A stretch of 64,000 nt of DNA from Burkholderiales bacterium (GCA_050260375.1 JBLNCA010000045.1:12423-76422), one strand, 5' to 3'; counted from the first letter of the stretch, positions 31,406 to 34,386 are shown. Program-made: numbers and translations. The notes: generated by a model not told the origin, from the sequence alone.

Positions 31406-32317
31406 ATGAGCGATAAGCGATTTCCGACAGACCATGAAGCAAAACAGACAATATTGGAAGTAGGCCGCAGGATGTATATGAAAAACTTTGTTGCGGCTAA
31501 CGACGGCAATATCAGCTGCAAGGTTGATGACGATGTTATCTGGACGACGCCCACGGGCGTATCGAAGGGCTTTATGGACGAAGATATGCTTGTCAAAATG
31601 CGCCTTGACGGCACCGTTCTTTCAACCGGCCCGTTAAAACCATCGTCGGAAATAAAAATGCATATACGCGTCTACAAGGAAAACCCCGAGGTGATGGGCG
31701 TAACGCACGCTCATCCGCCTATTTGCACATCCTTTGCAATAGCGGGCATAGGCCTTGACAAGGCTATTTATCCCGAAGCGCTCGTCAATCTCGGCACAGT
31801 GCCTTGCGTACATTATGAAACGCCGGGCTCGCAGGGCATTCCGGATTCCATCGCGCCTTATTGCAGGGATTATAACGCCGTTCTTCTTGGAAACCACGGC
31901 GCGCTCTCCTGGGGAAAGTCGCTTATCGAAGCGTTTTACCGTCTCGAAGCGATGGAGCATTACGCGCTGATTCTGATGTATACCGGCAATATCATAGGCA
32001 AGGCAAACGTATTAAGCTGCGACCAGGTTAAGGAGCTTTTAGATATCCGCAAGAGCCTTGGCATAAATGCTGGCGGCGTGCCTTTGTGCGCGCCGAAGCC
32101 GACAAATCTCAAAGACGTGGTTGCGCCGCACTCGCCGATAGCCCAATCTTCCGAGCAGGGCAAAGAGTTAAAGACATATACCCCGGACGATAAGGACAAT
32201 AAGGGCGACAAAGACGATAAAGCGTGCGGGTGTTCGGTTTCGCCCGCTTCAAACGTCGTCGCAAGCGATATTGAGAAGATCACGCAGGAAGTGCTGAAGC
32301 GCCTTAAGGACTTATAA
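31406..32317 (+). CDS. Class II aldolase/adducin-family protein with about 75-aa C-terminal extension ending in an encapsulation-peptide-like helix
   Basis: ANDGNIS, PSSE..MH, HAHPP, GNHGALSWG motifs; tail ...DDKDNKGDKDDKACGCSVSPASNVVASDIEKITQEVLKRLKDL; ATG 31406 after GGAG. Confidence 0.85.
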   Translation: MSDKRFPTDHEAKQTILEVGRRMYMKNFVAANDGNISCKVDDDVIWTTPTGVSKGFMDEDMLVKMRLDGTVLSTGPLKPSSEIKMHIRVYKENPEVMGVTHAHPPICTSFAIAGIGLDKAIYPEALVNLGTVPCVHYETPGSQGIPDSIAPYCRDYNAVLLGNHGALSWGKSLIEAFYRLEAMEHYALILMYTGNIIGKANVLSCDQVKELLDIRKSLGINAGGVPLCAPKPTNLKDVVAPHSPIAQSSEQGKELKTYTPDDKDNKGDKDDKACGCSVSPASNVVASDIEKITQEVLKRLKDL

Positions 32318-32333
32318 GCTTCGTAATTTTTAA

Positions 32334-32875
32334 TTCAACGCCCAGACGCTTATTCACGGCGACCTGCATACGGACTCAATTTTCGTAAAGCCCGACAGCA
32401 TTCGCGTGTTCGATCCCGAATTTGCGTTTTACGGCCCTATGGGCTACGACATAGGCAACGTGGTGGCGAATATGTTCTTTGCGTGGGACAACGGCAATGC
32501 GGCAGGCGCTACGGAGTTCTGCGACTGGGTACTTGAGGCCACGCAGATACAATCGACCTTTTCAACAAAAAGTTTTTAGCCTGCTTCGACGAATTTGCAA
32601 TGGACGTCATGGCGAAAACGGAAGGGTTCAAGGAATATTACCTCGATACCGTACTTGCCGACACCGCGGCTTATGCGGGCACGGAGCTGATACGCCGCAC
32701 GGTAGGCATGGCGCAGGTCAAGGATGTTACGACGATTGCGGACCCCGAAAAGAGGGCGTATGCCGAGCGCGTTAACATACTTTGCGCCAAAGACTTTATA
32801 ATAAACCGCAGGAAGTTCAAAACCGGCGCCGATTTTGTGGCGGCGCTGATGCGTGCCGCCGAGGCCGCAAAATAG
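32334..32875 (+). pseudogene. mtnK: 5-methylthioribose kinase relic (lacks roughly the N-terminal 230 codons; -1 frameshift near 32540-32560)
   Basis: Starts right after an in-frame TAA with [18 protein letters not shown]...[17 protein letters not shown], stops at TAG 32577. Continues in another frame IDLFNKKF...GTELIRRTVGMAQVKDV... to 32875. Confidence 0.75.
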
Positions 32876-32888
32876 ACGGGAGGATATC

Positions 32889-33971
32889 ATGGCAGACAAC
32901 ATTATGAACTACGAGACAGTGGCATTGAACGAAGAAAAAGCGACGCTGGAGATACTCGACCAGACGCAGCTGCCAAATCATGTCGAAATACTGTCTCTAA
33001 CGGATATCAAGGATATTTGGGACGCCATTTACCTGCTCAAGGTTCGCGGCGCGCCGGCTATCGGCGTTGCCGCGGCCATTGGGATTTATGTAGTAATGAG
33101 CCGCGTTGAAACGGACGACTGCGAAGTTTTCCGGGCTGAGTTCAAAAAGGCGAAGGATTATCTCGCGTCTTCGCGGCCCACGGCGGTAAACCTTTTCTGG
33201 GCGCTCGAACGCATGGAAAAGGTGGTGCAAAGCAGCAATTACAAATCGGTGCCCGAGTTAAAGCAGATTCTTCACGACGAAGCGGTGGCCATCAAGGATG
33301 AGGACGTCTGGGTATGCAGGTCTATAGGCGAATACGGCCTTTCGCTTATAAAGGACGGCGACGGCATACTGACGCACTGCAACGCAGGCCAGCTCGCAAC
33401 AGCCAAATACGGCACGGCGCTTGCGCCGATACACCTGGGGGCGGAAAAAGGCTATAAATTCAGGGTGTTTACGGACGAAACGCGGCCGCTATTGCAGGGC
33501 GTGAGGCTGAGCGCGTTCGAATTGCATTCCCATGGCATAGATACCACGGTGATATGCGACAATATGGCGTCGCAGGTGATGAAGAACGGCTGGGTGCAGG
33601 CGGTATTCGTAGGCTGCGACCGCGTGGCTGCCAACGGCGACGCGTGCAACAAGATAGGCACATCGGGAGTGGCGATACTCGCCAAATACTACGGCATACC
33701 GTTCTATGTATGCGCGCCGACCTCGACGATAGATATGCAGACTGAAAAGGGCGAGGACATTATCATAGAGGAGCGCCCGGCGGAAGAAGTGACCGAGATG
33801 TGGTACAAAAAGCGCATGGCTCCCGAAGGCGTAAAAGTATATAACCCCGCATTCGACTTTGCGGACAACGAACTTATAACGGCTATTATTACGGAATACG
33901 GCATTGCGCGTCCTCCGTACACCGAGAGCCTCAAAGAGATATTTGAGAAAAAGCGGCTCGCCGGTAAATAG
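32889..33971 (+). CDS. mtnA: S-methyl-5-thioribose-1-phosphate (or 5-deoxyribose-1-phosphate) isomerase
   Basis: LDQTQLP...VRGAPAIGVAAAIG...CDRVAANGD... eIF-2B-like MtnA signature. Confidence 0.88.
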   Translation: MADNIMNYETVALNEEKATLEILDQTQLPNHVEILSLTDIKDIWDAIYLLKVRGAPAIGVAAAIGIYVVMSRVETDDCEVFRAEFKKAKDYLASSRPTAVNLFWALERMEKVVQSSNYKSVPELKQILHDEAVAIKDEDVWVCRSIGEYGLSLIKDGDGILTHCNAGQLATAKYGTALAPIHLGAEKGYKFRVFTDETRPLLQGVRLSAFELHSHGIDTTVICDNMASQVMKNGWVQAVFVGCDRVAANGDACNKIGTSGVAILAKYYGIPFYVCAPTSTIDMQTEKGEDIIIEERPAEEVTEMWYKKRMAPEGVKVYNPAFDFADNELITAIITEYGIARPPYTESLKEIFEKKRLAGK

Positions 33972-34107
33972 TGCAGCGCTGCTGCAAGCGTCTTAAAGAA
34001 TTGTGGCAGAGTATGAAAGTTAAGCAGGGCGGTGCGGCACATTGACAAGAGCTCGCGAGAAGCAGGGAACGGGCAGCAGTAAAATTGAATCGAGAGGAGA
34101 AACACTC

Positions 34108-34386
34108 ATGGAAAAACAGGCATTGGGAATGGTCGAGACAAAAGGGCTTGTGGGCGCTATAGAAGCGGCGGACGCTATGGTGAAAGCCGCGAATGTAACA
34201 TTGATAGGCAAGGAGCGCATAGGCGCGGGCCTTGTTACCGTGATGGTACGGGGCGATGTGGGCGCCGTGAAAGCGTCGGTAGACGCGGGCGCAGCGGCGG
34301 CCAAGCGAGTAGGCGAGCTTGTCAGCGTGCACGTTATACCAAGGCCGCACGACGACGTAGAAAAGATATTGCCGACTATCGGATAG
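34108..34386 (+). CDS. Bacterial microcompartment shell protein, BMC-H (PduA/EutM type)
   Basis: [26 protein letters not shown]...[19 protein letters not shown]...VHVIPRPH; ATG 34108 after GAGGAG. Confidence 0.92.

Follow-up and report, generated by a model that had tools for sequence, protein, structure and literature searches.

A tailed class II aldolase and a lone shell gene as probable remnants of an eroded metabolosome locus, with a candidate dihydroxyacetone phosphate shunt microcompartment in related genomes

Introduction

In a 64,000-nt stretch of DNA from a Burkholderiales bacterium (GCA_050260375.1 JBLNCA010000045.1:12423-76422; hereafter the window), a class II aldolase with a C-terminal extension lies near a single gene for a bacterial microcompartment shell hexamer (BMC-H), with a relic of an mtnK-type kinase gene and an mtnA-type isomerase gene between them (positions 31,406-34,386, the feature studied here). 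What kind of locus do these genes represent? A first-pass annotation, made from the sequence alone, had read the extension as an encapsulation peptide, and had proposed either a satellite of a main microcompartment locus elsewhere or an undescribed link between the salvage of radical S-adenosylmethionine (SAM) by-products and a microcompartment.

PF00596 aldolases that end in an encapsulation peptide have been described in GRM5, PVM, PVM-like, ACI, MUF2, MUF3 and MIC4 loci (PMC8217296). Such aldolase-type microcompartments are catalogued in hundreds of genomes, and their substrates are unknown except for the fucose/rhamnose types. Separately, clusters of kinase, isomerase and aldolase genes with sugar transporters and a fucose-mutarotase homologue have been described as salvaging 5-deoxyribose to dihydroxyacetone phosphate (DHAP) and acetaldehyde (PMC6079011), and E. 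coli can grow on both 5-deoxyribose and 5-methylthioribose (MTR) through this DHAP shunt (PMC10986504).

By comparing the window with related loci, we conclude that the region is probably what recent erosion has left of a large locus for a catabolic microcompartment (metabolosome), and not a minimal new system.

Results

Gene content of the window

The intact remainder of the cluster consists of the tailed aldolase, an MtnA-type isomerase, one BMC-H gene and a LacI-family regulator, and the kinase, the BMC-P vertex protein and DhaL are present as pseudogenes (Table 1). The genes that flank the cluster are ordinary chromosomal genes. The division of the aldolase into core, linker and terminal segment made in the first-pass annotation was borne out by profile searches, as was the intact PduA-type gene downstream, which starts 1.79 kb past the aldolase stop with the kinase relic and mtnA in between. 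The BMC-H product matched PduA (7mmx, E 2e-41) and shared 92-94% identity with each of the two BMC-H copies found in intact loci. A tblastn search aligned the kinase relic, in two frames and at 72-88% identity, with residues 227-394 of the 403-aa kinases from three related loci (L001, L004 and L009).

Searches with reference proteins (tblastn) found no intact BMC-P, aldehyde dehydrogenase, PduL or PduS in the 64-kb window, in agreement with the earlier reading, and no further shell gene apart from a BMC-P relic. This relic, the 5'-truncated DhaL and the recognition that both gaps in the cluster are deletion scars when set against a close relative were new to the present analysis. The relic (~130 nt) is 78% identical in nucleotides to the start (~140 nt) of the third BMC-P gene in L009, and intact DhaL is 209-214 aa long in L007 and L009. 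Of the parts of a complete metabolosome the window thus encodes the BMC-H, with no intact BMC-P and neither aldehyde dehydrogenase nor phosphotransacylase; of the DHAP-shunt enzymes that act before the aldolase, it encodes the MtnA-type isomerase, the sugar 1-kinase being a frameshifted C-terminal relic.

Misassembly was considered as a source of this arrangement. A Logan contig of run SRR24035587 matches the window at 100% over 12 kb, which speaks against it, though the contig possibly derives from the same reads.

Table 1. Features of the aldolase-LacI cluster, with positions counted from the first nucleotide of the window
Feature	Position	Strand	Remarks
Candidate promoter-like site TTGACA-17-TAATAT	31283-31311	+	10/12 matches; AT-rich region upstream of aldolase
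Class II aldolase open reading frame	31406-32317	+	303 aa; C-terminus VVASDIEKITQEVLKRLKDL
Aldolase catalytic core, residues 1-225	31406-32080	+	PF00596 at residues 15-189, E 7e-47
Low-complexity linker with CGC motif, residues 226-285	32081-32260	+	AlphaFold2 pLDDT <50 at 237-283
C-terminal amphipathic helix, residues 286-303 (ASDIEKITQEVLKRLKDL), and stop codon	32261-32317	+	AlphaFold2 helix at 286-302
Deletion junction D1	32337-32338	.	~7.6 kb absent relative to L007; imperfect microhomology; 20 bp after aldolase stop
mtnK-type (MTR/5-deoxyribose kinase) pseudogene, C-terminal ~178 codons	32338-32875	+	1-bp deletion at 32542
mtnA-type sugar-1-phosphate isomerase, intact	32889-33971	+	PF01008 E 8e-84; TIGR00512 412 bits against cut-off of 279
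BMC-H shell hexamer gene, intact, PduA/EutM-like	34108-34386	+	92 aa; PF00936 E 3e-30
BMC-P (EutN/CcmL vertex protein) pseudogene relic, 5' part only	34396-34527	+	Start codon lost; five indels
Deletion junction D2	34527-34552	.	~1.9 kb absent relative to L007
DhaL (Dak2) 3' fragment, 5'-truncated	34552-34970	+	PF02734 profile positions 41-173 of 174
LacI-family regulator at 3' end of cluster	34979-35983	+	PF00356, PF13377, PF00532

The intact cluster in related genomes

Related loci were collected from the neighborhoods of three aldolase homologues and from 80 genomic loci anchored on the isomerase, and a presence/absence matrix was drawn up over 86 loci. Most of these hold one conserved cluster of ~20-22 genes, carried by metagenome-assembled genomes (MAGs) of Oscillospiraceae, Christensenellales, Candidatus Limiplasma, Defluviitaleaceae, Treponema and Synergistaceae. 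In all, the cluster was recognized in ~50 loci of Clostridia, Treponema and Synergistaceae. In L009 the order runs from the tailed aldolase through a CoA-disulfide reductase, a two-subunit CoA-transferase, an ATP-binding cassette (ABC) sugar transporter (binding protein, ATPase and permease), an MTR-type kinase and MtnA to PduL, BMC-P, an EutE-like aldehyde dehydrogenase, PduS, a two-domain BMC-T, BMC-H, BMC-P, BMC-H and BMC-P, and ends with a FucU/RbsD mutarotase, DhaK, DhaL and LacI; the LacI gene closes the cluster at the 3' end in most loci. Profile scores supported these assignments (CoA-disulfide reductase NF007123, 548 bits against a cut-off of 458; kinase TIGR01767, 419 against 275; aldehyde dehydrogenase PRK15398, 637 bits). 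Together with the isomerase score in the window, the kinase score of the relatives upholds the DHAP-shunt-type context that had been suggested earlier. In L009 both aldehyde dehydrogenase and PduL start with amphipathic segments (QQIRQITDDIVRELS, hydrophobic moment 0.69) of the kind typical for targeting peptides. As judged from its gene content, an L009-type locus is a complete predicted metabolosome, whose signature step would be the aldolase of a kinase/isomerase/aldolase pathway.

The accessory genes varied among loci. CoA-disulfide reductase and two-subunit CoA-transferase genes directly follow the aldolase (L009 2014-4859, ~50 loci) and were found only in shell-bearing versions of the cluster; the FucU/RbsD mutarotase and DhaK/DhaL (L009 16886-19013; L041, L080) occur in both shelled and shell-less versions. 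PduS is missing from eight otherwise complete loci (L065, L068, L072, L075, L078, L079, L081 and L083), and therefore the electron-transfer pair appears dispensable for this microcompartment type. In these eight, BMC-T gave no match in L065, L078 and L083 and a partial one in the others, and L046 is without PduL, PduS and BMC-T.

One may ask whether this is simply an ordinary GRM5 or PVM fucose/rhamnose aldolase microcompartment with coincidental mtn neighbors, as peptide-tailed PF00596 aldolases are a signature of the catalogued types listed above (PMC8217296) and JGI labels the homologues of the window aldolase as L-fuculose-phosphate aldolase. However, true GRM5 aldolases (the P0266 family) show a core identity of only 45-47%, and their loci encode a glycyl radical enzyme, its activase, a Zn-dependent alcohol dehydrogenase, four BMC-H, PduL, EutN, PduS/T and DeoR. 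No glycyl radical enzyme and no fucose/rhamnose isomerase or kinase was found in the ~80 related loci, in which all genes between aldolase and LacI were accounted for and MtnK and MtnA were adjacent throughout. In a neighbor-joining (NJ) analysis that took in these GRM5 aldolases, P0266 lay outside the present aldolase clade in 100 of 100 bootstraps. Because of this exclusion and the absence of a glycyl radical enzyme, the aldolase family is not GRM5, and we regard a GRM5 or PVM identity as highly improbable. The earlier expectation that the aldolase would stand apart from known fuculose-aldolase clades thus held for GRM5, the type covered by the comparison.

Erosion of the window copy

The closest relative, L007, is a Bacillota MAG locus (JAEZIZ01) with a 96% identical isomerase, and served as reference for gaps and for dN/dS. 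Three colinear blocks were recovered by blastn (window 30474-32337 = L007 1-1856; 32337-34527 = 9448-11585; 34552-42183 = 13453-21080), and the breaks between them define the two deletion junctions of Table 1. At D1 the window has lost the CoA-disulfide reductase, CoA-transferase A/B, the substrate-binding protein, ATPase and permease of the transporter, and the 5' two-thirds of mtnK; at D2 it has lost the rest of the BMC-P pseudogene, the FucU/RbsD mutarotase, DhaK and the 5' part of DhaL. Against L007, the mtnK relic shows one single-base deletion (32542) and a dN/dS of 0.10, so that it was a working gene until very recently.

Part of the loss is older. L007 is itself without the block from PduL to the second BMC-P, and therefore so was the common ancestor of the two loci; just after its remaining BMC-H (L007 11450-11750) lies a full-length BMC-P pseudogene with many indels. 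We propose that this ancestor would have lost the PduL-to-second-BMC-P block (PduL, aldehyde dehydrogenase, PduS, BMC-T and other shell genes), that the last BMC-P would have turned into a pseudogene in the same ancestor, and that the transporter, kinase, CoA enzymes, mutarotase and DhaK/L would have been lost in the window lineage alone, through two very recent deletions and a frameshift.

Other relatives have decayed as well. The next relative, L008 (93%), retains the isomerase only, having lost aldolase and BMC-H, and L016, L018 and L030 are independently reduced. In L016 (8010-10000) a tail-less aldolase core is fused in-frame to an MtnK-type kinase in one 664-aa open reading frame, apparently through a deletion between the genes.

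The aldolase tail and its relation to shell genes

The metal and catalytic residues of the aldolase (E82, H101, H103 and H164) are invariant in 62 homologues, and its last ~78 residues lie outside any domain match. An AlphaFold2 model built from the 62-sequence alignment predicted a linker of low confidence (pLDDT <50 at residues 237-283) followed by a helix at 286-302 (pLDDT ~83 for 291-300). The hydrophobic moment of the tail (0.61-0.68 in 15- and 18-residue windows) is the maximum of the protein for those lengths. When the last 18 residues were shuffled 10,000 times, only 56 of the permutations reached the observed value. The helix motif D-[IV]-x-x-I-T-Q-x-V-L-x-R-L was present in 54 of the 62 homologues. 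The linker varies in length and sequence across orthologues, with C274-G275-C276 nearly invariant. Homologues of the aldolase number in thousands; the closest 120 span 247-323 aa, mostly 280-320 aa, and those aligned keep the tail. The tail is thus both predicted helical and conserved, contrary to two of the outcomes that the first-pass annotation had named as refuting its reading.

The origin of the tail as a fusion artefact of deletion D1 was considered and rejected, because the junction lies 20 bp beyond the aldolase stop codon; the tail is also conserved in intact loci.

Tail presence was then compared with shell genes in loci with enough flank to judge; the loci are related by kinship and the counts are descriptive. 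A long-tailed aldolase with shell genes in view was found in 54 loci (the window and L007 with a single BMC-H only), and a short aldolase with shell genes in view in none. Short aldolases without shell genes occurred in four loci (250-257 aa), and the only long-tailed aldolase without shell genes was that of L018, itself a decayed locus. The first-pass annotation had held that its reading would be refuted if tailed orthologues were common in genomes lacking shell genes; here, L018 apart, they sat in loci that encode shell genes. Two further short aldolases without shell genes, in L064 (240 aa) and L080 (254 aa), have less flank. Overall, the aldolases of shell-less loci (L029, L041, L064, L080, L082 and L086) are 236-257 aa long and end a few residues past the core without the helix. 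Such loci keep the aldolase, ABC transporter, kinase, isomerase and LacI, with FucU and DhaK/L in L041 and L080 also, and are without CoA-disulfide reductase and CoA-transferase. This is the pattern that an encapsulation peptide predicts.

When the core domains were placed in an NJ tree, four sequences from shell-less loci branched at the base, and L029, L041 and L052 fell among tailed Limiplasma-type sequences (60% bootstrap for that group). The tree suggests one gain of shell and tail followed by several losses.

A tail with an oligomerization, regulatory or metal-binding role unrelated to microcompartments would be in keeping with the conserved CGC just upstream of the helix and with the Cys-rich linkers of other tailed aldolases. 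Against such a role, the tail co-occurs with shell genes, is lost or truncated where they are missing, including in the nested lineages L029 and L041, and has the architecture of published encapsulation peptides (PMC8217296); we consider it very improbable. That the tail behaves as an encapsulation peptide, being a predicted helix after a disordered linker, conserved and tracking shell genes, is well supported by sequence and model. The CGC motif itself (window 32225-32233, residues 274-276) directly precedes the helix and may have a metal or redox role; distant tailed class II aldolases, including those of GRM5, have CxxCxxC-like motifs at the same place.

Selection on the surviving genes

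The window and L007 are separated by a dS of ~0.25-0.4. Over this distance the BMC-H gene has accumulated 20 synonymous differences and 1 non-synonymous difference (dN/dS 0.014), and the aldolase tail, whose helix shows a single conservative replacement, has a dN/dS of 0.11. Values for mtnA (0.08) and the LacI regulator (0.06) are also low, and the aldolase core and MtnA have been under purifying selection since the split. The divergence of the two loci post-dates their shared loss of the neighboring shell and core genes, and therefore BMC-H and tail remained useful long afterwards. Two possible explanations are another microcompartment locus in these genomes, or a role of BMC-H and peptide that is independent of a shell. 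That the adjacent BMC-P is decaying, and that transporter and kinase have only just gone, argues that the system, at least in the window, is now being lost.

The same selection data bear on the first-pass proposal of a satellite, in which tailed aldolase and BMC-H would still feed the shell of a main locus elsewhere and the local losses would reflect fission of the locus. Candidates for such a main locus would be the PduL/aldehyde dehydrogenase/shell block, moved by translocation, or a metabolosome of another type. The strong constraint on BMC-H and tail, all of it measured on divergence that followed the shared loss, is what a working satellite would show; in addition, L007 retains the CoA-disulfide reductase and CoA-transferase, which elsewhere are found only with the shell module, and satellite loci of BMC-H with or without aldolase are documented (PMC8217296). 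On the other hand, indels are breaking down the adjacent BMC-P in window and L007 alike, the just-lost transporter and kinase leave the aldolase without a locally encoded substrate supply, L008 has neither aldolase nor BMC-H, and no other shell or core gene lies within 64 kb. We judge a satellite to be unlikely, yet the least unlikely of the alternatives.

The constraint on MtnA and the aldolase core would also suit a reduced housekeeping salvage, in which, uptake and kinase having been lost, the two enzymes dispose of endogenous 5'-deoxyadenosine or methylthioadenosine and the tail and BMC-H are leftovers. A nucleoside phosphorylase encoded elsewhere would feed this route; a phosphorylase-fed path to the sugar-1-phosphate has been described (PMC6079011), and kinase-less aldolase-MtnA pairs occur in L018, L029, L030 and L076. 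However, the window yielded no identifiable phosphorylase, the selection signal comes mostly from before the recent deletions, and the conserved BMC-H is left unexplained. This alternative is, to our mind, slightly less likely again than a satellite. An eroded metabolosome locus thus remains our preferred reading of the window.

Transcription signals and neighboring genes

A promoter-like site upstream of the aldolase is listed in Table 1 as a candidate; in the scan for promoter-like sites and terminators around the aldolase, the number of sites was not above shuffle or chance expectation. An Rfam scan of 30900-36100 found no S-box or other riboswitch, and because of this SAM-responsive methionine-salvage control is unlikely.

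Just upstream of the aldolase stand three tandem paralogues on the + strand (27294-28427, 28639-29712 and 29873-31009), each coding for a membrane anchor at the N-terminus, a linker rich in Pro and Thr (PTPTPTP) and a phosphodiester-glycosidase domain of the NAGPA type (PF09992). Their DNA sequences share 68-71% identity, and three copies are also found in L008. Downstream, convergent with the cluster LacI gene, 36096-37994 (- strand) encodes a 632-aa protein with a LacI-type periplasmic-binding-like sugar sensor domain and a C-terminal GGDEF diguanylate cyclase; this neighbor is kept in L007 and L008. Farther away, two stretches of low G+C content (48001-50000, 0.40; 62001-64000, 0.38; window ~0.51) may be acquired DNA.

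Discussion

A proposed pathway for the intact form

In the intact form, a LacI-controlled ABC transporter would import a 5-deoxy-pentose-type sugar, the likeliest being 5-deoxyribose and/or MTR. The FucU/RbsD mutarotase and MtnK-type kinase would convert it to the sugar-1-phosphate, the MtnA-type isomerase to the ketose-1-phosphate, and the class II aldolase would cleave the latter into DHAP and a small aldehyde (acetaldehyde or methylthioacetaldehyde). The C-terminal amphipathic helix would bring the aldolase into a shell of two BMC-H, one PduT-like BMC-T and three BMC-P. Inside, an EutE-like CoA-acylating aldehyde dehydrogenase and then PduL, both with N-terminal targeting helices, would take the aldehyde to acyl-CoA and acyl-phosphate, with PduS/PduT, CoA-disulfide reductase and CoA-transferase possibly serving the cofactors. 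The roles of the CoA enzymes and of DhaK/L in this scheme are conjectural.

The substrate is probably 5-deoxyribose or methylthioribose, by homology and by analogy with described clusters. These sugars are favored because the kinase and isomerase score far above the MTR-kinase and MtnA cut-offs, because published 5-deoxyribose clusters share the enzyme triad, the sugar transporters and a fucose-mutarotase homologue (PMC6079011), and because the shunt supports growth of E. coli on both (PMC10986504). The LacI gene, the ABC transporter and the lack of an S-box fit catabolism rather than methionine salvage.

The joint reading, that the intact relatives encode a DHAP-shunt metabolosome for 5-deoxyribose or methylthioribose and that the window kept BMC-H and the tailed aldolase under selection after the loss, is one that we advance tentatively, rating it a little short of an even balance. 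Several points weigh against the preferred reading of an eroded metabolosome locus and against its proposed pathway. The very low dN/dS of the lone BMC-H and of the tail challenges the word relic. The aldolase is ~24-29% identical to the solved 5-deoxyribulose-1-phosphate aldolase and scores similarly against FucA and YgbL. A pathway that itself produces DHAP gives no obvious reason for DhaK and DhaL, which are unexpected there and may indicate a different sugar. Encapsulation is a prediction from sequence and modelled structure. Finally, the window and L087 may share source reads, and so may represent a single sample of the deletions.

On the aldolase itself, the best solved relatives were YgbL (6voq, 88 bits), the B. 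thuringiensis 5-deoxyribulose-1-phosphate aldolase DrdA (6btd, 72 bits) and E. coli FucA (1fua, 61 bits), and sequence and fold searches of the PDB did not separate a DrdA-like from a FucA-like function. No NCBIfam aldolase model scored above its cut-off, the best being OtnC (116 against 250 bits).

Significance

The window is best annotated as a decaying locus rather than as a functional microcompartment, and the interest lies chiefly in the locus family of its relatives and less in the window copy. The first-pass proposal of an undescribed link between salvage and a microcompartment accordingly finds its counterpart in the complete metabolosome loci of the relatives, and is not supported for the window, which is more probably a deletion remnant than a compact new system.

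If the family-level part of the joint reading is true, it would describe a microcompartment for the use of SAM by-products that is equipped with a CoA-disulfide reductase and a CoA-transferase of its own, is found widely in gut and digester Clostridia, Treponema and Synergistaceae, and has a tail that was gained with the shell and repeatedly lost with it. It would tie the scavenging of radical-SAM and polyamine by-products in anaerobic gut communities to organelle-based handling of aldehydes, and the pathway link gives a testable substrate hypothesis for one aldolase-type microcompartment. If the window-level part is true, it would mean cross-use of the shell of another organelle, or a shell-independent scaffold of BMC-H and peptide.

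The relatives also amount to a natural experiment, with the same pathway present with and without a shell and with tail, CoA-disulfide reductase and CoA-transferase coming and going with it. Several lineages, including that of the window, have been caught in the act of losing the shell, which bears on the evolution of cargo recruitment and on which components a shell requires besides the classic core.

Comparison with known systems

In itself the tail is a feature of a familiar kind, because similar tails occur on the catalogued aldolases and on others; in a library-wide search, many other class II aldolases (37-50% identical) had similar tails and Cys-rich linkers. The intact loci resemble the catalogued aldolase metabolosomes (GRM5, GRM5-like, PVM, PVM-like, MIC4 and MUF3; Sutter et al., 2021, PMC8217296) in having a peptide-tailed PF00596 aldolase as signature enzyme, a core of CoA-acylating aldehyde dehydrogenase and PduL that each begin with an N-terminal targeting helix, and PduS paired with PduT. 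They share a triplet of BMC-P genes with MIC4 and PVM, and the absence of an alcohol dehydrogenase with the "incomplete core" types. They differ in that an MtnK-type kinase and MtnA-type isomerase replace the fucose/rhamnose isomerase and kinase, in having no glycyl radical enzyme, and in adding CoA-disulfide reductase, a two-subunit CoA-transferase, DhaK/DhaL and an ABC sugar transporter.

In the accessible part of that catalogue (PMC8217296), the table of BMC-associated families lists neither PF01008 nor a CoA-disulfide reductase, and gives PF01636 for RMM only. The same part holds a type "GRM5like" of 44 loci, including Christensenella minuta, with no description, and its shell-protein trees do not name the MAGs of the relatives, only Christensenella minuta being there, typed GRM5like. 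The intact loci may already be counted under a catalogued type whose function is unassigned, "GRM5like" being one candidate.

Known BMC satellites and fragments, such as the satellite with the HO type I aldolase and the fragments of EUT2K (PMC8217296), likewise pair one shell gene with one cargo enzyme and have no vertex or core genes nearby. The window differs from them in that its genes were deleted in place, with scars and pseudogenes visible, and in that no partner main locus is seen in 64 kb.

With the DHAP shunt or 5-deoxyribose salvage (DrdK-DrdI-DrdA, MtnK-MtnA-Ald2; PMC6079011, PMC10986504) the loci share the triad of kinase, isomerase and class II aldolase, the clustered sugar transporters and fucose-mutarotase homologue, and the expected products DHAP and acetaldehyde or methylthioacetaldehyde; five relatives (L041, L064, L080, L082 and L086) carry shell-less versions of the same cluster, as in the shunt. 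Most relatives differ from it in adding a full microcompartment module and the aldolase tail, along with LacI regulation, and in the window the kinase is a pseudogene. The open-access literature gave no relevant report linking a microcompartment with methylthioribose, 5-deoxyribose, the DHAP shunt or MtnA/MtnK; the sole trace was an mtnK beside the A. woodii pdu cluster that was called "unrelated to BMC function". At the level of the family, the link between DHAP shunt and microcompartment looks like a metabolosome function that had not been assigned.

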